Positions 21,973 to 46,384 of a stretch of DNA of 64,000 nt are shown here, one piece after another. Origin of the DNA: Escherichia phage vB_EcoM-UFV13; the sequence record NC_031103.1; one strand, written 5' to 3'. The notes under the pieces are model-generated. The model was not told the DNA's origin. It made no database searches and worked only from the letters and a program-made list of their open reading frames with translations. The position numbers were made by a program, and so were the translations under genes. How positions within the stretch are numbered: position 1 is the first letter of the stretch; every line of letters starts with the position of its first letter.

Positions 21973-22937
21973 TGTATTCTTTAGAGGAATTTAATAATCA
22001 AGCAATAAACGCAGATTTCCAACGTAATAATATGTTTAGCTGCGTTTTTGCGACAACTCCATCAACTAAAAGCTCTTCGTTGATAAGTTCAATTAGCAAC
22101 TTTTCTTATAATAACTTGGGCCTAAATTCAGATTGGTTAGGATTAACTCAAGGCGATATTAATCAGGGAATTACCACGCTAATTACTGCTGGTACACAAA
22201 AACTAATAAGAAAATCAGGAGTCAGTAAATATCTTATTGGTGCCATGAGTCAACGTACTGTCCAGAGTTTATTAGGCTCATTTACAGTCGGTACATATTT
22301 AATCGATTTCTTTAATATGGCGTATAATTCATCTGGATTGATGATATATTCTGTAAAAATGCCAGAGAATAGATTATCCTATGAAACTGACTGGAACTAT
22401 AATTCTCCTAATATTCGTATAACTGGGAGAGAATTAGACCCTTTGGTTATTTCATTTAGAATGGATTCAGAAGCTTGTAACTATCGTGCAATGCAAGACT
22501 GGGTTAACGCTGTTCAAGACCCAGTAACTGGATTACGTGCTTTGCCACAAGATGTCGAGGCAGATATTCAGGTTAATCTTCATGCTCGTAATGGATTACC
22601 TCATACTGCGGTGATGTTCACCGGATGCATTCCAATATCAGTGAGCGCTCCTGAGTTATCATATGATGGAGATAACCAAATAACTACATTTGACGTTACT
22701 TTTGCGTATAGAGTGATGCAGGCTGGAGCAGTTGATAGGCAAGCTGCGCTTGAATGGCTTGAATCTGCTGCTATAAATGGTATTCAAAGCGTTCTCGGAA
22801 ATAGTGGAGGTGTTACTGGACTATCTAATTCGCTTTCACGACTTAGTAGATTAGGAGGAACTGCAGGAAGCATTTCAAACATTAATACTATGACAGGGAT
22901 TGTCAATTCGCAAAGTAAAATATTAGGAGCAATATAA
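21972..22937 (+). CDS. 54: Baseplate tail tube initiator gp54
   Basis: 321 aa; TAATG overlap with 48. Confidence 0.9.
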   Translation: MYSLEEFNNQAINADFQRNNMFSCVFATTPSTKSSSLISSISNFSYNNLGLNSDWLGLTQGDINQGITTLITAGTQKLIRKSGVSKYLIGAMSQRTVQSLLGSFTVGTYLIDFFNMAYNSSGLMIYSVKMPENRLSYETDWNYNSPNIRITGRELDPLVISFRMDSEACNYRAMQDWVNAVQDPVTGLRALPQDVEADIQVNLHARNGLPHTAVMFTGCIPISVSAPELSYDGDNQITTFDVTFAYRVMQAGAVDRQAALEWLESAAINGIQSVLGNSGGVTGLSNSLSRLSRLGGTAGSISNINTMTGIVNSQSKILGAI

Positions 22938-22940
22938 CAA

Positions 22941-22960
22941 TGGGGACCGAAAGGTCCCCA
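22941..22960. terminator. Bidirectional terminator between gene 54 (+) and the minus-strand early block
   Basis: TGGGGACC-GAAA-GGTCCCCA hairpin with T-runs, between convergent genes. Confidence 0.8.
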
Positions 22961-22965
22961 TATTT

Positions 22966-23256
22966 TTATTTACGGAATGAAATAAAAGCAGCAACTGAAG
23001 CAACTAAACTGTCTTCAATATAAACTTCAATTTTTACCGGAGCTTCTGACTCAAATTTACCTGTTACTACACCTTGAAAAATACTTTCAGTCTGTTCTGG
23101 CTTTGAAAAATTTTCAGAAGGAAAAATTCCGAACTTTTTATCCGTTCCAAAAATTTTGATAAATTCATCGTAAACTGCTTCATTAAAAGCATTATCAGCA
23201 GGAATAACGCCTTCAACTACAAGTTCTTGACCTAAAAAGCGCAAAGAAGATTTCAT
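22966..23256 (-). CDS. Hypothetical protein, 96 aa
   Basis: ATG start with GAGGA SD 7 nt upstream; own early-type promoter; no recognisable domain. Confidence 0.55.
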   Translation of the reverse strand: MKSSLRFLGQELVVEGVIPADNAFNEAVYDEFIKIFGTDKKFGIFPSENFSKPEQTESIFQGVVTGKFESEAPVKIEVYIEDSLVASVAAFISFRK

Positions 23257-23287
23257 TTTGTGTTCCTCATGTTATGTCAGTAAGACT

Positions 23288-23317
23288 ACTATAACACAAC
23301 ATAAGGAACTTGTAAAC
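23288..23317 (-). promoter_or_regulatory. T4 early-type promoter (GTTTACA - 17 nt - TATAGT) inside a conserved leader element, copy 1
   Basis: Minus strand GTTTACA overlapping the alt-paralogue stop, 17-nt spacer, TGTTATAGT; about 90% identical to the element at 38261-38316. Confidence 0.55.
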
Positions 23318-25374
23318 TACATTTTGAACTTTTTAGACATTCCGTTGATGTTAACCAAAGAAGCTAAGATTTGAGAAACTTCGTTTTCCTCTTCTTTTGA
23401 TTCTTCTACAAGGAATTGATTAAATCCAGTCATTGGACGAACTTCACCAGTTTCCATCAGATGGTCGCCATCATATACTGATTCTTCTAATTGTTCAGAA
23501 GGAGGAACGATTGTACCTTCGATTAGATACTTGTTATAAGCAGTTTCTTTCATAAAGTAAGTACTTACTTTATTAATCTTCAGTAAAATTCCACGCGGTA
23601 GAATAACTTCAGCTTCTGATGGAAATCCTGATAAATGACCTGGAACGATAACTTTGATTCGCTCAGCTCCTTTAATTACCATACCCACGCTAGTTTCAGC
23701 ATCTTCATTAGCATATGTAGAATGACTACCCATATGCATTAAATCTTCGGCATCAACGGAACCTTCTCCTTCACCAGAAAATACTGCGCCGGAATCATCT
23801 AGAGCCATATAGTTTTTACCATGCTCACCGAAGATATTTGGTTTAAGCGATGTGGATACGAAGTTCTTGAAATAGAACATTTTATTTTCAATGTTATGAC
23901 GCAAAGTTTTAAAGGTAACTTCTTGTCCACGGTAAAGTGTAGTTCCTGGAGGAAGAACTGATCCTTTGGCAAAGGCAGAATCCAACGTCTCGATGTGCTT
24001 AATAGCTCGTTCCATGTATTCTTCACGGGTAGAATCTGGTTTACCCAAAAGGAACGAGTTCATTTCAACATATGAATCTGCACAATAATCTTCAATTACA
24101 TCAGATTCAGCTTGGGTTAGTCCTTTTGGAGTTACTTCGGTGCTTGCGTATTCATATGCCTGAGCAGCAGATTCATTAATCAATTTATAAATGCCATTCA
24201 TTACAAATTGAATAATAGCTGTCTTTTCATCTGGTGTAGCTTTAGAACCTTTAACTAAATCATTGATAATTTTCTTAATAACATCAAAGCTATTAGAAAT
24301 ATTAATGTCAGCAAGATCACTTAAAATTTTATCAGTTTTATAATCAAAGAATTCTTTATTCTTTAAATATTCTTGAGAACCTTGATATGTTATATCGCTC
24401 TGCAGCTTGATAGATGGATCGCGTAAACGTGCATGGGCCAATGCAATATGATTTCGGAAGCTTTCTAGTTCATAATCGTTAGATTTAAAACGAGAAGCAC
24501 TTCTCATACCACCGATAGCTCCTTTGCTGAAGTTTGAACCAATCTGAATAACGCCAGAGTTCATTGGTCCTTCTGCTTTATATACCGGAACCTTAGATTC
24601 AAACTCTTGATATTTCTTAGCAGCGAAGCTATCACCCTGAAGTGAAGCGTCAACAGTAGAATATTGAGCTTGTGCTGCTAATCGACGACTAATTTTAGTT
24701 TTCTGAATAACAGCTTGGTCAGTACGTTTATCATTTTCTAAAGCAATAGAAGCAGCAACAGCGACAGCTTTAGGAACAGCATTACCTGTTTTAACGTCTA
24801 CATAAACATCACCAACCTTTGATTCAACTTTTGTGAATAACTCAGTTGAAATAGGAGGTACACCTGGAATGTCTTCTAAATTGGCATTTTTACGGTAAAC
24901 CATAATATATGCATATTTCTTATCATAGTCCCAGATTTCCTTTAAGAGAACATATCGACCTGCTCCTTTAGTACGTACTAAACGGTCAGCAATAACTTGC
25001 ATTTGACGAGCAGCGCCATTTGTTTTACTTTTTAGTACGCGGAATAGGCATGCATCAATTTTATACTGCTTCATTGTTTGAAGAGCAGTATCAAAAACAG
25101 CATTAATGACACCAATTGGATTTCCACCCAAGTTTCTAAGCTTAACCAGCGATAATTTCTCGTTGACACCTATCATTACGATATGCATCATTTTATCGCC
25201 TGGCTTAACGTTTTTATTTGTATCACCGCCAGAGGTGTATGTACAAAATCTAAATCCAGGAAGCACACTTTCTTCACCGGCTTGAATAGCAAAAATTTGA
25301 GGTATTTTATGCTTAGGATTTAAGTTAACAACCGGCGCCGAAGCGCCGTCAAATAATTCTGTAATAAGTTCCAT
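23317..25374 (-). CDS. Alt-family ADP-ribosyltransferase paralogue (head-packaged Alt-like protein)
   Basis: 685 aa; N-terminal about 230 aa and C-terminal ART region align with the adjacent Alt; central region diverged. Confidence 0.85.
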   Translation of the reverse strand: MELITELFDGASAPVVNLNPKHKIPQIFAIQAGEESVLPGFRFCTYTSGGDTNKNVKPGDKMMHIVMIGVNEKLSLVKLRNLGGNPIGVINAVFDTALQTMKQYKIDACLFRVLKSKTNGAARQMQVIADRLVRTKGAGRYVLLKEIWDYDKKYAYIMVYRKNANLEDIPGVPPISTELFTKVESKVGDVYVDVKTGNAVPKAVAVAASIALENDKRTDQAVIQKTKISRRLAAQAQYSTVDASLQGDSFAAKKYQEFESKVPVYKAEGPMNSGVIQIGSNFSKGAIGGMRSASRFKSNDYELESFRNHIALAHARLRDPSIKLQSDITYQGSQEYLKNKEFFDYKTDKILSDLADINISNSFDVIKKIINDLVKGSKATPDEKTAIIQFVMNGIYKLINESAAQAYEYASTEVTPKGLTQAESDVIEDYCADSYVEMNSFLLGKPDSTREEYMERAIKHIETLDSAFAKGSVLPPGTTLYRGQEVTFKTLRHNIENKMFYFKNFVSTSLKPNIFGEHGKNYMALDDSGAVFSGEGEGSVDAEDLMHMGSHSTYANEDAETSVGMVIKGAERIKVIVPGHLSGFPSEAEVILPRGILLKINKVSTYFMKETAYNKYLIEGTIVPPSEQLEESVYDGDHLMETGEVRPMTGFNQFLVEESKEEENEVSQILASLVNINGMSKKFKM

Positions 25375-25377
25375 GAT

Positions 25378-27474
25378 TTATCCTTGAACGAACTTGTAAG
25401 GCATGTTTGTAATATCTATGCAAGACGCAATAATTCCAAGAGATGATTCTACTTTCTGTTTAACATTTGATGAAACAAATGATGCAAAGTCAACTCTGTC
25501 TTCTACTTCAATATCACCTGTCATTGCAACTACTTCACCGGTTTCCATTAAATGGTCTCCGTCATAGATTACCGATTCGGTGAGCTCTTCCGTAGTCATA
25601 ACTTCAGCTTGAATGAGTTTTGTATTATTAGATGTTGTTCCGTCATTATTAGAAGCATCAGTTATTTTATTAACTTTGACCATCAATCCGCGCGGTAGAA
25701 TAACTTCAGCTTCTGTTGCTATTCCGAGACTTCCTGGATATACAACATTAACTTTATGAGCTCCATCAATTGCCCATCCTATTTGAACTTTAACGTATTC
25801 AGGATTTTCTTTATACGCTCTTATTTCGTTTGGATTAATAGTTATTCCTTCTTCATTTTTATCAACTGTTAATTCATTGCGAGCTTCTGGTTCTAAAAGA
25901 CCAATACCAGCATGTGTAATTCCAAAACGTCCAAAAATGATAGGAGTTAAAGAAGTAGATACAAAATTTCTGAAATAGAACACTTTATTTTTAACTAGTG
26001 CTTCGTATATAGGAGCAGTCATACTTTGAGCACGATAAACTGTAATGCCTTCCGGTATGCGGTCACCATTTTCAAAAGCTGAATCTAAATTATTTATAGC
26101 AGATTCAATTTCTTTTTCACTCATTACATCATATCGTTCTGGATTGTAACGACCTAAAAGAAGATTATTAATGTCTGTATATCCTGAACCACAATATTCT
26201 CTAATACCTCGCTTTTGTGATGGAGTATATTTAGAACCATCACGGGCGATAGTAATATCAATCATTGGACCAGCGCCAATTCCGGAAAAGCTATAAATCA
26301 TTCGTTTGAGGAATTTAGTTTTTGCCGCATTCCAGGCATTTTTAGTTATTTCTCCCCAGACTTCATCTGACTGCCCTTTACGAGTTTTATTATGTTTATC
26401 AAGCCAATTATCTTTGTATTCTTCAAAGAATTTATTAACAGCTGCTGCGTATTTCTCTAAACATTTTATTGAAGTAGTTGGTTCATTTTTGATTGCGTTA
26501 AAAATTACATCTTTAATTTTTTCTGAAACTTCATCAACCTCACTTTTTGAAAAGAATTTATAGTCATAGTGAAGTTCATTCGCAGTTCCTTCGGCAATAA
26601 TTTTTGCTGCCTTAGTTTTAGAAGCTAATGAATTAATTCCAAGCTTCATTTCTTCTGCTTCGGGAATTAAAGGAGCGGTAGCAGGTTTATTGAAATTAGC
26701 TGCGGTAGATTCATACTTCTGGAATAATTCACTTTCAAATCTAGAAGATTCCAATGATTGACTTTGCGCAATTGCTCTACGGGAAATTTTAACTTTAACG
26801 ATTACAGCTTGGTCAGAACGCTTATCATTTTCTTGCGCAATAGATGCTGCAATTGCCTCATTTTTAGTTACTTGGGCTCCAGTATCTTTATTGATATAAA
26901 CATCACCGACCTTCGATTCAACTTTAGTAAAGAGCTCGGTACTAATTTCCGGAACTCCTGGAATGTCTTCTAGCGATACATTTTTGCGATGTATAAGAAT
27001 ATATGCATACTTTTTATCGTAATCCCAGAGTTCCTTAAGAAGGACGTATCTGCCACCTGAACGACTACGGATAAGTCTATCAGCAATAACTTGAATTTGT
27101 CGAGCTTGACCAGCAGTTTTAGACTTAAGAATACGAAGCATACAAGCATCAATTTTATATTGACGCATAGTTTGCATTGCAACAGTAAAAACTGAATTGA
27201 TATAATTAATTGGGCTTGGACCAAGACCTTTTAATTTAGCAATTGAACCTTTAGCAGTTAATGTAAAAGGAACAATATGCATCATTTTATCGCCCATCTT
27301 TAAATCGCGATTAGTATCACCTCCAGATGTATAGGTACATAAACGAAAGCCTGGTTGTTCAATTGCATCATCAACATGAACTGAAAAAATTTGTGGTATT
27401 TTCTTCTTTGGATTTAAGTTTGTAATCGGAAGAGTAGTATCTTCGTCAAATAATTCTGTAATAAGTTCCATCAT
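25378..27474 (-). CDS. alt: Alt ADP-ribosyltransferase
   Basis: 698 aa; N-terminus MELITELFDEDTTLPITNL and C-terminus IASCIDITNMPYKFVQG recalled as T4 Alt; ART motifs (YRxQ-like, STSL, EAEVILPRG). Confidence 0.9.
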   Translation of the reverse strand: MMELITELFDEDTTLPITNLNPKKKIPQIFSVHVDDAIEQPGFRLCTYTSGGDTNRDLKMGDKMMHIVPFTLTAKGSIAKLKGLGPSPINYINSVFTVAMQTMRQYKIDACMLRILKSKTAGQARQIQVIADRLIRSRSGGRYVLLKELWDYDKKYAYILIHRKNVSLEDIPGVPEISTELFTKVESKVGDVYINKDTGAQVTKNEAIAASIAQENDKRSDQAVIVKVKISRRAIAQSQSLESSRFESELFQKYESTAANFNKPATAPLIPEAEEMKLGINSLASKTKAAKIIAEGTANELHYDYKFFSKSEVDEVSEKIKDVIFNAIKNEPTTSIKCLEKYAAAVNKFFEEYKDNWLDKHNKTRKGQSDEVWGEITKNAWNAAKTKFLKRMIYSFSGIGAGPMIDITIARDGSKYTPSQKRGIREYCGSGYTDINNLLLGRYNPERYDVMSEKEIESAINNLDSAFENGDRIPEGITVYRAQSMTAPIYEALVKNKVFYFRNFVSTSLTPIIFGRFGITHAGIGLLEPEARNELTVDKNEEGITINPNEIRAYKENPEYVKVQIGWAIDGAHKVNVVYPGSLGIATEAEVILPRGLMVKVNKITDASNNDGTTSNNTKLIQAEVMTTEELTESVIYDGDHLMETGEVVAMTGDIEVEDRVDFASFVSSNVKQKVESSLGIIASCIDITNMPYKFVQG

Positions 27475-27494: not shown

Positions 27495-27502
27495 TATTTA
27501 TA
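27495..27502 (-). promoter_or_regulatory. T4-type late promoter for the alt tandem (TATAAATA on the minus strand)
   Basis: TATTTATA on the + strand, 21 nt upstream of the alt ATG; Alt is a late, head-packaged protein in T4. Confidence 0.6.
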
Positions 27503-31273: not shown

Positions 31274-31639
31274 TTAAATATCAAATTCGTTAAGAACTAC
31301 ATCAAAGATTGCTTCAAGATGCTCAGGTTTAGCTCTGTTACTCAGAATATGACGAATCCAAGTTTTAACAAGAAGCTTGCGATTAACGCCATTCCAGCAA
31401 GGATGAGTACCTAAATCACGTTGACGAAAATCATCATCCAGAGCGATTTTAAAGTTGGAACCTTCCATCGTGATTGAAACCGTGATACCGTTTTCAAATC
31501 GCATATAAACGTAGTTAGGAGTCATATACTGCTCAATTTCGCATACTGATCCATTTTGATGTTTCCAAAGGCAAATAGTATCAATAGAACCTGCAATACC
31601 ATTAGAAACATATTTACGTTCAAAGTTAATGTAGTTCAT
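31274..31639 (-). CDS. Hypothetical protein, 121 aa
   Basis: ATG at 31639 with GGAG SD; the track start at 31651 is TTG. Confidence 0.5.
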   Translation of the reverse strand: MNYINFERKYVSNGIAGSIDTICLWKHQNGSVCEIEQYMTPNYVYMRFENGITVSITMEGSNFKIALDDDFRQRDLGTHPCWNGVNRKLLVKTWIRHILSNRAKPEHLEAIFDVVLNEFDI

Positions 31640-31664
31640 TTTATTCTCCAAGATGTTTAATTGT

Positions 31665-31704
31665 GGTACAGGTGTATAATATCATATCCTGTACCAAAGT
31701 AAAC
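31665..31704 (-). promoter_or_regulatory. Early-type promoter (GTTTAC - 16 nt - TGATATTAT) with the -10 inside a hairpin loop
   Basis: GTAAAC at 31699-31704 (+), -10 at 31676-31681; inverted repeat GGTACAGG/CCTGTACC at 31665-31672 and 31688-31695. Confidence 0.55.
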
Positions 31705-31706
31705 AA

Positions 31707-32039
31707 TTATTTTACTACTTTCCAATGCTTCATGTCAAGTTTACCAACTTTTTTCATCTTCTCAATTAAGCGTTCGGCACGTTGGCGAGCTGTAACATAA
31801 TACCATTCACCTAATTCATTTTGTTCAATTTTTCCAACGATTACTGTATTCAATTCATAAATCCAACCAGTAAAGAAATTATGAACTTGAATTGTAAAGG
31901 TGAAATCTGTTCCCATACCTTCTGTTGTTTCTACTTCAATAATATCACCTTCAACTGCCATTAAGAACCACATAGTTTCATCATATGCACCGTTGAAGCA
32001 TTTAGTTTTAACAGCAGCGTTCAGATTAATCGTTTTCAT
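31707..32039 (-). CDS. Hypothetical protein, 110 aa
   Basis: ATG start with AAGGAG SD. Confidence 0.5.
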   Translation of the reverse strand: MKTINLNAAVKTKCFNGAYDETMWFLMAVEGDIIEVETTEGMGTDFTFTIQVHNFFTGWIYELNTVIVGKIEQNELGEWYYVTARQRAERLIEKMKKVGKLDMKHWKVVK

Positions 32040-32066
32040 TTTATTCTCCTTTGTTTGTGTAAGATA

Positions 32067-32096
32067 ATACTATCACAAAGGAACCATACTGTAAAC
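32067..32096 (-). promoter_or_regulatory. Early-type promoter (GTTTACA - 17 nt - TAGTAT)
   Basis: GTAAAC at 32091-32096 (+), TGTGATAGTAT -10 region. Confidence 0.5.
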
Positions 32097-34696: not shown

Positions 34697-34932
34697 AGTA
34701 CGCCATACACCCTTTGTGCTTCAACTAATCCATCAAAATCTAATTTAAGATGCGATATTTGGTCACCATCACCTGGATTCACAATTACTAATACTGAACG
34801 AGGAGTTTCGGTAATAACACGAACCGATGTTTCAGGAAATCGTTCAGAAACCTTATTTACCAATTCCTGAGCAAATAGTTTAACTTTTTCTTGGAATTCT
34901 TTAACAGTAATTGGTTTTTCACTTAGCAGCAT
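34693..34932 (-). CDS. Hypothetical protein (cd.2 position)
   Basis: 79 aa, ATG start with GAGGA SD. Confidence 0.5.
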   Translation of the reverse strand: MLLSEKPITVKEFQEKVKLFAQELVNKVSERFPETSVRVITETPRSVLVIVNPGDGDQISHLKLDFDGLVEAQRVYGVL

Positions 34933-34952
34933 TTTGTTTTCCTCATTTGTTT

Positions 34953-34991
34953 GGTAGAGCTATAATATCACAACTCTACCGTAAAGTAAAC
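34953..34991 (-). promoter_or_regulatory. Early-type promoter (GTTTAC - 17 nt - TGTGATATTAT) with the -10 inside a hairpin loop
   Basis: GTAAAC at 34986-34991 (+), -10 at 34962-34967; inverted repeat GGTAGAG/CTCTACC at 34953-34959 and 34974-34980. Confidence 0.55.
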
Positions 34992-37410: not shown

Positions 37411-37760
37411 TTAGAAAGGTCCTGGATGTCTTCTGCGAACTTGTTGAAGGAGTTGTTGATTTGTTTTTCAACCAATCCTGGCTTATGAGCCACCACATCC
37501 GCCTTCTTTGCGTCTTTGCGCAGTTTTTCATTTTCACGCTCAATAGCAGCAATTGCCTCACGATTTTTATTATTCATCGCATCAATATAATTATACTGAA
37601 TTCGCAAATTATTTAATGCTAAAGCGTTTTCATTGGCCGTTTTTGTAATTTCTACAACAGACGTTTCTAATCTTTCAATTTTATTTTTTAAAATTAAAGA
37701 AGTTCCGCCCAATGCAATTACAATTAATAGCAAGCCTGCTGTCGTATTACTTAATTGCAT
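37407..37760 (-). CDS. Inner-membrane spanin (i-spanin; T4 PseT.3-type)
   Basis: 117 aa; N-terminal TM helix LLLIVIALGGTSLIL followed by a coiled-coil periplasmic domain. Confidence 0.65.
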   Translation of the reverse strand: MQLSNTTAGLLLIVIALGGTSLILKNKIERLETSVVEITKTANENALALNNLRIQYNYIDAMNNKNREAIAAIERENEKLRKDAKKADVVAHKPGLVEKQINNSFNKFAEDIQDLSK

Positions 37761-38254
37761 AAAGTTTTAATAACCTCTATAATATCGTCTTGAGAAAGAC
37801 CGTTAATTAAAATATGATGTTCAGCAGGAGATTTAGAAATTTTAAAGCATGCCTCAACATCTTCTGCCATATCTGATGCGCTACGATTTGGATTACTAAT
37901 TCCAAGACGATGTTTTCCCGTCAAAGGATTAACGATGATATAGCATTTACAGTTGTTAATATGAACATTAGGTTGAGTCTGATTAATGAACACATCACAA
38001 TCATATTTCGCAAGCTGATTTTCTAAAAAGACTTTCATCTCCTCAACTGCATCAGGAAGCATATCACGGGCTTGCTCAAGACGACGATTTCGATATTCTT
38101 TAATGGTCGTTTTCCGCTTGACTTGCTTAGCTAAATCTTTCTTAAGATCGGTGATATATCCAACTCGACGATTTCCTTTAAATACAGAAATCCCATCTGT
38201 AGTATCACCGTATGCTTCAACGACCATTTCAGTAGTAATAAGCTGTAAATCCAT
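37751..38254 (-). CDS. alc: Alc (host transcription shut-off)
   Basis: 167 aa from the second ATG, as in T4 Alc; position between spanins and rnlA. Confidence 0.8.
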   Translation of the reverse strand: MDLQLITTEMVVEAYGDTTDGISVFKGNRRVGYITDLKKDLAKQVKRKTTIKEYRNRRLEQARDMLPDAVEEMKVFLENQLAKYDCDVFINQTQPNVHINNCKCYIIVNPLTGKHRLGISNPNRSASDMAEDVEACFKISKSPAEHHILINGLSQDDIIEVIKTLCN

Positions 38255-38260
38255 CATAAA

Positions 38261-38316
38261 GTCCTCATGTTATGTCAGTAAGACTACTGTAACACAACAC
38301 GAGGGACTTGTAAACA
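38261..38316 (-). promoter_or_regulatory. Early-type promoter (GTTTACA - 17 nt - TACAGT) plus conserved leader, copy 2, upstream of alc
   Basis: About 90% identical to 23262-23316; GTAAAC at 38310-38315 (+); the leader carries the GAGGA SD. Confidence 0.55.
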
Positions 38317-38318
38317 GC

Positions 38319-39906
<1,588 letters not shown>

Positions 39907-39913
39907 AATAAAA

Positions 39914-39927
39914 TGGGCCTTGCGGCC
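39914..39927 (-). terminator. Terminator after nrdB (GGGCC-GCAA-GGCCC then U-run, minus strand)
   Basis: Perfect GC hairpin 7 nt after the nrdB stop, followed by ATTTTATTATG. Confidence 0.65.
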
Positions 39928-39933
39928 CACTCC

Positions 39934-41103
39934 TTAAAAATATTTTTTAAAACTCATCATAACTTTATCATCAACATCATTATCAATCTGCGCAACAAGG
40001 TAAGATGACAGTTCTACTTCTTGCGGTGCAGATTGAACATTATCAGAATTAAGATATTCACGAATCCAAGGATACGGATGTTTAACCGGAGCATCAGTAA
40101 TTGGGCATGGAAGACCGCACTGTTTCATACGAGATACAGTTAAGTAATCAATAAAGCTCCACATGCTATTTGTATTTAATCCAGGAACATCGCCATCTTT
40201 AAATAAATGAACTGCCCAGTCTTTTTCTTGACGGTTAACTTCCATGAAAATATCAACTGCTTCTTGTTCACATTCTTGGGCAATTTTAACCCATTCATCA
40301 CCATCAGTGCCAAGTTGAAGTTGACGAATAATATATTGGGTGCCTTTAAGGTGAAGCTGCTCATCACGTGCAATGAACTTCATAATCTTGGCATTACCTT
40401 CCATAATTTCCATGTTCTTATGGAAGTTAAAGGTACATGCGAAAGATACATAAAAACGAATAGCTTCCAATGCGTTGATTACGTGCAGGCAGAGGTAAAG
40501 AGATTTCATTAGTGCTCGTTTAGTACATTCAACAACTTTGCCTAACTCTTCTTTACGAAATCCTTCTGATAAAATTCCTTCATAATCTTCAACCGCATTC
40601 TGATATTCACGAGTCTTAACTAGAACATCATCGTAATAGCGACCAATGGACTCGGCACGTTTCATAATAGCTTTATCTAATACAATCTCGTCAAATACTT
40701 TTGACGGATCAGTATAAAGATTTCGCATAATATGAGTATATGAACGGCTGTGAATAGTTTCGCTAAAAGTCCATGTAGCAACCCATGTATCAAGACTTGG
40801 GTCTGAAATTAACGACATAAGTACAGCAGACGGCGCACGACCCTGAATGCTATCCAAAAGTGATTGATACTTCAGGTTATTAGTAAAAATATCTTGCTGA
40901 TATTGAGGAAGCTTGTTAAATTGTGCAGCATCCATCATCAAGTTTACTTCTTCAGGACGCCAGAAAAATGATAATTGCTTTTCGGTTAAATCTTCAAAAA
41001 CTTTATGACGTTGAATATCGTAACGCGCAATACCGAGACCTGAACCGAAGAACATAGGTTCTTTTAAAACATCAACTGGATTTGTATTAAAAACTGTGCT
41101 CAT
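39934..41103 (-). CDS. nrdB: Ribonucleotide reductase small subunit (uninterrupted, no intron)
   Basis: 389 aa continuous ORF; di-iron ligand motifs; T4 nrdB carries a group I intron that is absent here. Confidence 0.95.
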   Translation of the reverse strand: MSTVFNTNPVDVLKEPMFFGSGLGIARYDIQRHKVFEDLTEKQLSFFWRPEEVNLMMDAAQFNKLPQYQQDIFTNNLKYQSLLDSIQGRAPSAVLMSLISDPSLDTWVATWTFSETIHSRSYTHIMRNLYTDPSKVFDEIVLDKAIMKRAESIGRYYDDVLVKTREYQNAVEDYEGILSEGFRKEELGKVVECTKRALMKSLYLCLHVINALEAIRFYVSFACTFNFHKNMEIMEGNAKIMKFIARDEQLHLKGTQYIIRQLQLGTDGDEWVKIAQECEQEAVDIFMEVNRQEKDWAVHLFKDGDVPGLNTNSMWSFIDYLTVSRMKQCGLPCPITDAPVKHPYPWIREYLNSDNVQSAPQEVELSSYLVAQIDNDVDDKVMMSFKKYF

Positions 41104-46086: not shown

Positions 46087-46329
46087 TTAAACAGACTTTT
46101 TCACAATTTTCCAATCAGCTTTAAACTGATTGACGTCAGAATGGTAAATCCAGAATCCTGCGCTTTCTCCATCCTCATAAAGAGGGCATCCATCGCATTC
46201 ATCTTCCCATCCCATATCACGTAAAAGTTGTTCAGCTTTTTCAACAAGTTCAGAATCTTTACCGATGATATTAAAATACCATTTACCTCTAACTTCCGAA
46301 TCTTTGATGCTCTGGCGTTGTAATCTCAT
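46087..46329 (-). CDS. Hypothetical protein (frd.2 position)
   Basis: 80 aa; CDGC motif. Confidence 0.5.
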   Translation of the reverse strand: MRLQRQSIKDSEVRGKWYFNIIGKDSELVEKAEQLLRDMGWEDECDGCPLYEDGESAGFWIYHSDVNQFKADWKIVKKSV

Positions 46330-46347
46330 TTTATTCTCCTTAGTTGA

Positions 46348-46384
46348 TAGGGTAATAGTATCACACTACTACCCTACTGTAAAC
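46348..46384 (-). promoter_or_regulatory. Early-type promoter (GTTTACA - 17 nt - TGTGATACTAT) with the -10 inside a hairpin loop
   Basis: GTAAAC at 46379-46384 (+), -10 at 46355-46360; inverted repeat TAGGGTA/TACCCTA at 46348-46354 and 46370-46376. Confidence 0.55.

Follow-up and report, generated by a model that had tools for sequence, protein, structure and literature searches.

Two leaders on the minus strand of Escherichia phage vB_EcoM-UFV13 (NC_031103.1; the stretch of 64,000 nucleotides analyzed here is referred to as the window) each place an early promoter inside a long hairpin, the 3′ arm of which carries the Shine–Dalgarno (SD) sequence of the downstream gene. This arrangement raises the question of whether the site at which transcription starts determines if the downstream gene, alc in one case and alt.-3 in the other, is translated. 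A preliminary description of this DNA had proposed that transcripts initiated at the embedded promoter lack the 5′ arm, so that the SD is free, and that read-through transcripts have it sequestered. Every prediction that this proposal makes at the level of sequence holds. For alc and alt.-3, we infer where transcription starts, whether and how much read-through RNA is made, and how translation is affected.

The window is 98 to 99.8% identical to Tequatrovirus genomes, with Shigella phage Shfl2 as the top match, and its source is a Tequatrovirus (T4-like). The minus-strand gene order nrdB, denA, rnlA, alc, pseT.3, pseT.2 is the same as in T4. The alc gene (37751–38257, −; phrog_1253, E = 3.6e-82), which encodes an inhibitor of host transcription, is separated from rnlA by 61 nt and has adjacent ATGs at 38257 and 38254, the second of which is the annotated start in T4. 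The rnlA ORF call extends to a GTG at 39479, probably a false start; an ATG is found at 39443. The second gene, a putative gene of 96 aa with no assigned function (22966–23256, −; phrog_1739), matches T4 alt.-3; its upstream neighbor is an alt gene of 685 aa, and the leader sits between the two. The window contains two full-length tandem alt paralogues of 698 and 685 aa (23317–27474, −); the T4 counterpart consists of a single alt plus alt.-1/alt.-2, annotated there as duplication remnants. Having two intact alt genes puts the promoter–hairpin cassette of the window directly 3′ of an intact alt gene.

Alignment shows that the two leaders, which lie about 15 kb apart in the window, are near identical across the roughly 55 nt that run from GTTTACA to GAGGA, with four to five differences and unrelated flanks. 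In the alc leader (38259–38315, −), the rnlA stop codon TAA (38319–38321) lies 4 nt upstream of the −35 hexamer, which is part of the GTTTACA (38309–38315) of a T4-type early promoter and is invariant in all alc leaders compared. The −10 hexamer TACAGT (38286–38291; TATAGT in T4) is located in the apical part of the hairpin and is preceded by an extended −10 TG (38293–38294). Based on promoter geometry, transcription is predicted to start within 38277–38281, on the CTTAC adenine at 38279, which follows the −10 by 7 nt; a CTTAC-like motif recurs at this position in most lineages compared. In the minimum free energy (MFE) structure, the 5′ arm (AAGUcCCUCGUGUUGUGUU plus apical CAGUA) spans 38285–38309 and the 3′ arm (UACUG ACAUAACAUGAGGACUU) spans 38259–38280, including the SD GAGGA (38262–38266).

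The alt.-3 leader (23262–23316, −) has the same layout. The stop codon TAG of the 685-aa alt (23317–23319) shares its G with the first base of the −35 GTTTACA (23311–23317), the −10 hexamer TATAGT with its extended −10 TG is found at 23288–23293, and transcription is predicted from promoter geometry to start at approximately 23281. The MFE structure pairs a 5′ arm of GUUCCUUAUGUUGUGUU plus apical UAGU (23287–23309) with a 3′ arm of ACUG ACAUAACAUGAGGAAC (23262–23282) that contains the SD GAGGA (23264–23268). Downstream of the gene, a terminator scan identified a bidirectional intrinsic terminator between alt.-3 and gene 54 (22940–22961), which is probably where alt/alt.-3 transcripts end. The promoters read TTTACA-17-TACAGT for alc and TTTACA-17-TATAGT for alt.-3, both with an extended −10 TG; the T4 GenBank records have no promoter features annotated at these leaders. 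The overlap between the upstream stop codon and the −35 (TAGTTTACA; 23311–23319, −), with the stop no more than 7 nt from the stem, recurs at many of the alc loci retrieved from other phages (e.g., loci L020, L026, and L052–L066, around position 338–345).

The preliminary description quoted, for one copy, a stem of 16 to 17 bp with 14 Watson–Crick and 3 G·U pairs, formed by GUUCCUUAUGUUGUGUU and GACAUAACAUGAGGAAC, and placed it at 38261–38316. The pairing stands, as a hand count gives 17 bp and matches the MFE structure; the location does not, since these arms lie at 23262–23309 (−), in the alt.-3 leader, and 38261–38316 (−) holds the second copy, GUCCCUCGUGUUGUGUU/GACAUAACAUGAGGAC. Folding of both RNAs yielded a stable hairpin in each case, and 0 of 200 dinucleotide-preserving shuffles folded equally well. 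The alt.-3 copy forms the 17-bp stem with a 4-bp apical extension (MFE −25.7 kcal/mol, z = −5.9). The alc copy shares this stem except for one bulged C, and its apical extension measures 5 bp (MFE −28.6 kcal/mol, z = −5.2; both z-scores relative to the 200 shuffles), and two to four additional pairs (AAGU/ACUU) are available at its base. A U–A pair of the alt.-3 copy corresponds to the bulged C of the alc copy, whose 3′ arm is one A shorter. The MFE folds place GAGGA in the 3′ arm of both copies, as had been claimed, and the substitutions between the copies indeed preserve pairing: a U·G pair in one copy is C–G in the other, and a neighboring A–U is replaced by G·U. Counting the extensions, Tequatrovirus stems comprise 21 to 22 bp. 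Because of the G·U pairs, the sense RNA of the Tequatrovirus copies is 8 to 10 kcal/mol more stable than the antisense RNA. Stems outside Tequatrovirus are purely Watson–Crick and fold equally on either strand, which means that the functional strand is not distinguishable there. Scanning the whole window against Rfam returned 0 families at the gathering score.

To what extent the hairpin would occlude the ribosome site was estimated from the energetic cost of unpairing positions −14 to +3, calculated in a context of −75 to +21 for 87 gene starts within the window. With values of 18.2 kcal/mol for alc and 17.1 kcal/mol for alt.-3, the two genes rank second and third of the 87, the median being 4.6 kcal/mol. 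Thus, by calculation, read-through RNA, which includes the promoter spacer, would bury the SD at an opening cost of 17 to 18 kcal/mol. The 5′ arm of the hairpin lies wholly within the promoter spacer and the −10 region, upstream of any plausible start, so promoter-started RNA lacks this arm. With the predicted start 7 nt after the −10, the leader of such RNA would be 22 to 25 nt long, its SD is predicted to be free, and the calculated opening cost is 3.4 to 3.6 kcal/mol. The difference extends beyond the window: in seven lineages, opening of the alc site costs 10.9 to 19.5 kcal/mol in read-through versus 0.7 to 3.9 kcal/mol in promoter-started RNA, and for alt.-3 in the window and in T4 the corresponding values are 14.8 to 17.1 and 3.3 to 3.6 kcal/mol.

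Start-site dependence presupposes two kinds of RNA. For alt.-3, the likely source of late read-through RNA, judged by its sequence, is a late-promoter consensus TATAAATA at 27495–27502 (−), about 20 nt upstream of the first tandem alt gene. A scan of 22700–23700 predicted no terminator upstream of the leader as far as 23700; the only one found is that at 22940–22961, after alt.-3. Given the late-promoter consensus upstream and no predicted terminator from 23700 to the leader, late RNA should enter the alt.-3 leader. For alc, no terminator is predicted at the rnlA–alc junction, and no convincing early promoter was found in the stretch from nrdA to rnlA; hence, RNA carrying rnlA probably continues into the alc leader. 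Read-through RNA of this kind would originate upstream of rnlA in the early or middle period, not late. A candidate MotA-dependent middle promoter (TGCTTCC, 13 nt, TG-preceded TACTAT) is present upstream of rnlA at 39455–39500 (−); the T4 middle-promoter table lists no documented middle or late promoter directly upstream of rnlA. Published T4 omics data class alt as late and alt.-3 and alc as early, each at both the RNA and the protein level, and rnlA as early RNA and late protein. These classes are compatible with start-site-dependent translation and are no proof of it.

We propose that each leader is a compact module of early promoter, hairpin, and ribosome site. A polymerase arriving from upstream would copy the promoter spacer and, with it, the 5′ arm of the hairpin, producing early or middle rnlA RNA in the case of alc and late alt RNA in the case of alt.-3. 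This arm would pair with the SD-bearing 3′ arm, and the downstream gene would be poorly translated from the read-through RNA. A polymerase initiating at the embedded sigma-70-type early promoter would begin its transcript some 7 nt beyond the −10, within the apical loop or on the 3′ strand of the hairpin, and the resulting RNA, devoid of the 5′ arm, would leave the SD accessible. Alc and Alt.-3 would then be produced essentially only while the early promoters fire, despite continuing transcription of the region. We put the probability of this explanation, in which translation of alc and alt.-3 depends on the start site and only promoter-started RNA is translated well, at roughly 0.58.

A well-characterized class of T4 genes is regulated in this manner. 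For e, soc, 49, and I-TevI (and also I-TevII/III, Aeh1 mobE, and segB), the SD and/or the AUG is contained in a helix whose 5′ strand lies upstream of an internal promoter (PMC3014915). In the e/soc/49/I-TevI class, RNA from the internal promoter, lacking the 5′ strand, is translated and the longer RNA is not (PMC3014915). The alc and alt.-3 leaders resemble this class in that the SD is paired in the longer RNA and the promoter, as judged from the predicted start, is inside the structure. They differ in the nature of the promoter: the internal promoters of the known class are late (late or middle for the endonuclease genes), and translation is delayed, whereas those of alc and alt.-3 are early and of the sigma-70 type. 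The late-promoter consensus TATAAATA is absent from both leaders. With an early internal promoter, synthesis would be restricted to the early period, the reverse of what holds for e, soc, 49, and I-TevI. Neither alc nor alt.-3 is in the list of the 2010 review of T4 post-transcriptional control (PMC3014915), and our literature searches found no prior description of the alc/alt.-3 hairpin; it may be mentioned in older T4 literature.

Conservation of the hairpin was assessed using alc loci of other genera, taken first from GenBank phage records and then from IMG/VR, where an Alc alignment yielded 41 loci; retrieval from IMG/VR by single proteins gave only near-identical phages. Both copies are present in T4, at rnlA/alc (136276–136339) and alt.-2/alt.-3 (near 123033–123090), and two leader-matching places occur in most Tequatrovirus records among the matches listed. 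The alt.-3 copy of T4 bears an alc-type 5′ arm, leading to one C·A mismatch, and three changes relative to T4 give the alt.-3 copy of the window its perfect 17-bp stem. Exchange from copy to copy, followed by repair of the pairing, would fit the difference between these arm sequences.

Across the loci compared, the rnlA–alc synteny and an intergenic space of about 60 nt are widely kept. An SD-burying alc hairpin was found in Tequatro-, Gelderland-, Karam-, Braga-, Dhaka-, and Winklervirus, in a Klebsiella T4-like lineage, and in several further lineages. The geometry is shared: GTTTACA is followed directly by a 5′ arm containing CUCC or CCUC, then by a loop with the −10 and the start zone, and finally by a 3′ arm that terminates in the SD, 5 to 9 nt before the ATG. 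The stem sequences themselves vary by lineage (UCUCCGUUU/AAACGGAGA, UCUCCAUUUGGUU/AACCAAAUGGAGA, AUCCUCAUCAG/CUGAUGAGGAU, AACCUCUCAUUUU/AAAAUGAGAGGUU, UCUCCUCAU/AUGAGGAGA, and CCCCGUUUUGUU/AACAAAAUGGGG), with segments such as CGUUU/AAACG, CAUUUGGUU/AACCAAAUG, CAUCAG/CUGAUG, and UCAUUUU/AAAAUGA covarying between genera, and outside Tequatrovirus the stems are 9 to 17 bp long.

When arms were swapped among seven lineages, the native pairing was the best of all 5,040 permutations (−144.7 kcal/mol, compared with a mean of −85.1 kcal/mol and −101.5 kcal/mol for the best derangement). Plain MAFFT alignments of the leaders left the 3′ arms out of register, and pair counts were taken from a covariance-model alignment instead. 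Antisense rows, which appear because the element is palindromic, were filtered out before counting. In the resulting alignment of 27 distinct sense leaders, 92% of the cells are paired and 12 of the 17 pairs show double changes, figures that are to be read in light of an alignment fitted to the structure and of sequences that are mutually related. One column pair, for example, is A–U in 12 leaders, G–C in five, and U–A in seven. In controls, sliding the partners gave 35 to 49% pairing and column shuffles gave 73%, with 0 of 1,000 reaching the observed value. The hairpin is genuine, with strong statistical support and conservation in evolution.

Burial of the SD is not universal, as several alc lineages form exceptions. 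In Mosigvirus, a small hairpin is confined to the spacer and the SD is free. In Providencia phage PSTCR6 and three IMG/VR lineages (L050, L067, and L056), a strong hairpin spans the −10 and stops 3 to 4 nt before the SD, and Gaprivervirus has an additional small ORF and a true terminator after rnlA. The arrangement was not found in the Acinetobacter, Aeromonas, and Cronobacter phages examined, one of each. At alt.-3, the leaders of Dhakavirus and Gaprivervirus carry spacer-only hairpins, and the SD-including form was seen only in Tequatrovirus; on these sequences, it seems to be a copy of the alc module confined to Tequatrovirus.

The variant loci have features of their own. In Mosigvirus PhAPEC2 (L018, 341–404), an ATG that overlaps the rnlA stop codon (TAATG) begins a frame that stays open through alc, and the GenBank record lists an N-terminally extended Alc of 187 aa; this could reflect coupling in place of gating or a mere annotation choice. 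In Gaprivervirus VR7 (L016, 60–175; also L030, L041, and L042), the extra ORF between rnlA and alc is 77 aa long and annotated as Alc-like. Ahead of it lie a clear terminator and an SD-pairing hairpin of another kind, which, being downstream of the putative promoter, would occur in all transcripts. In Mosigvirus F31 (L023, 580–645), a small unrelated gene near endonuclease IV has a leader whose 3′ half, AGTCCTACTGAAACATGAGGAACACAAAATG, is a close match to the alt.-3 leader and whose hairpin spans the −10 only. Judged from these sequences, early leaders seem to pass segments from one gene to another.

The arrangement also invites comparison with the PeSL, a composite of stop codon, early promoter, stem-loop between or overlapping the −35 and −10, SD, and ATG (Arbiol et al. 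2010, PMC2839356; Comeau et al. 2014, PMC4122927). PeSLs are repeated within genomes and have been reported in RB49/phi1, PST/T4, and nt-1/KVP40 (PMC2839356; PMC4122927). Both leaders studied here are likewise intergenic, with a sigma-70-like early promoter followed by SD and ATG, and with a stable stem-loop that overlaps the promoter boxes, its arms flanking the −10, in two genomic copies. If they are simply PeSLs, the stem-loop would attenuate or terminate upstream transcripts, the repeat would serve as a site of homologous recombination, and pairing of the SD would be incidental. One PeSL stem-loop lowered expression of a downstream lacZ about as much as rrnB T1, PeSLs are on record for T4/PST, and three other promoters of the window, at 46383, 34990, and 31703, have −10-spanning hairpins that spare the SD. 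In phage ASO78A (MZ726795; L073, 314–375), the depositors entered the alt.-3 hairpin as a WebGeSTer rho-independent terminator, which overlaps the T4-type early promoter that they also annotated, and the neighborhood of alt.-3 varies, with alt.-1/alt.-2 remnants in T4 and a second full alt here. However, terminator scans were negative at both leaders, and a U-tract after the stem is absent from the alt.-3 copy and from the six other alc lineages, the tails being A-rich and T4-type alc having only UUUAU (the tails 3′ of the stem are ACAAAAUG for alt.-3 and, for alc, UAUGAUGG after the full and UUUAUGAU after the shorter stem). A canonical intrinsic terminator is thereby ruled out. Moreover, termination does not need a 3′ arm that ends in the SD, yet most alc lineages have one despite full turnover of the stem sequence. 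In PeSLs, the SD is a separate 3′ component, whereas here the stem runs from the spacer over the start site to the SD, and PeSLs are scattered in variable regions, whereas the alc hairpin is conserved by covariation at one orthologous, syntenic core junction. We therefore consider it unlikely that attenuation and recombination account for these leaders. In RNA phage MS2, SD-occluding pairing enforces translational coupling between coat and replicase, and the downstream ribosome site in the alc and alt.-3 leaders is similarly buried by pairing with upstream sequence. Ribosomes ending at the upstream stop codon, 0 to 4 nt before GTTTACA, might open the base of the stem or arrive by the start codon, making output proportional to the upstream gene. 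In alt/alt.-3, as in many alc leaders, the −35 directly adjoins the stop codon or shares bases with it (TAGTTTACA); the stem thus begins 7 to 11 nt after the stop, and the hairpin draws stop and start codons together. Given the footprint of a ribosome, however, a terminating ribosome should reach only 0 to 3 bp of a stem of 9 to 21 bp; in T4, the alt.-2 stop is inside the loop of the alt.-3 hairpin, and hence this geometry is not conserved; and the Alt.-3 protein is classed as early but alt as late. Coupling of this kind thus appears distinctly improbable. Pairing of the MS2 type is opened by ribosomes on the upstream cistron, whereas an alternative start inside the hairpin is the most plausible release for alc and alt.-3.

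The hairpin could, in principle, act in RNA processing or stability, with the duplex being cut (e.g., by RNase III) or shielding the upstream 3′ end and so separating the rnlA or alt mRNA from the downstream message. The 21- to 22-bp Tequatrovirus stems are close to the length that RNase III requires, but those of other genera have just 9 to 17 bp, the constant inclusion of the SD is left unexplained, and no Rfam family matched, making such a role very improbable. RegB processing, which targets GGAG, was considered separately and set aside, as the T4-type SD is GAGGA and GGAG is absent. We give still less credence to the structure being a DNA-level palindrome (a cruciform or a protein site acting on the promoter) or arising by chance from the promoter and ribosome-site consensus. 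Outside Tequatrovirus, the stems are indeed fully Watson–Crick and equally stable on either strand, and early promoters and early ribosome sites have common consensus sequences. Against both stand the shuffle z-scores of −5 to −6, the covariation of stem sequences outside the consensus elements, and, in Tequatrovirus, the G·U pairs that favor the sense RNA.

To our knowledge, every established T4 case of start-site dependence delays the protein until late infection, and T4 is the textbook example. If start-site-dependent translation of alc is correct, the same device is reversed and keeps Alc, a host-shutoff protein, to the opening minutes of infection; an early rather than a late logic would be new for this hairpin class, and it is plausible. 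Compensatory evolution has kept the hairpin in several genera, which argues for selection to limit Alc. A broader version, put forward only tentatively, is that the alc promoter inside an SD-hiding hairpin may act in many T4-like phages as a conserved early-only gate, with Alc synthesis ending at early-promoter shut-off though transcription continues, that Tequatrovirus may have placed a copy of the gate at alt.-3 behind the late alt, and that some PeSL stem-loops may be translational gates, not terminators. This would offer a second, testable function for T4-type promoter-overlapping stem-loops, so far read as terminators or recombination sites. It would also carry a warning for annotation, in that such hairpins are not necessarily terminators, and provide a compact natural part, some 60 nt in length, through which the choice of promoter would govern a gene's translation.

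Other early promoters of the window are associated with hairpins. At 46329–46383, 34932–34990, and 31639–31703 (−), GTTTAC-type early promoters have inverted repeats of 7 to 10 bp with the −10 in the loop, which pair the −35/−10 spacer with the first transcribed bases and leave the SD free or nearly so. These leaders resemble classic PeSLs and precede small ORFs with no assigned function (phrogs 1254, 1504, and 1582). The early-promoter leader of a 110-aa ORF (32039–32096, −; phrog_1507) is different, since its spacer, UUCCUUUG, pairs with CAAAGGAG, SD included. With an opening energy of 11.7 kcal/mol and a weak score of 22.4 bits against the covariance model of the alc leader, it may be a third member of the alc/alt.-3 class. 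Identification of this ORF as gene 31 is unsupported, as it falls in a phrog without assigned function.

The highest opening energy among the 87 gene starts, 19.3 kcal/mol, belongs to denA and has another cause. Between its AAGGAG SD and its ATG lies a TGGGCC-GCAA-GGCCCA hairpin followed by TTTTATT (39906–39936, −). By its sequence, this hairpin looks like the nrdB terminator, and by analogy with T4 genes 38 and 25 it may also form a “split” ribosome site in which the hairpin joins SD and AUG.
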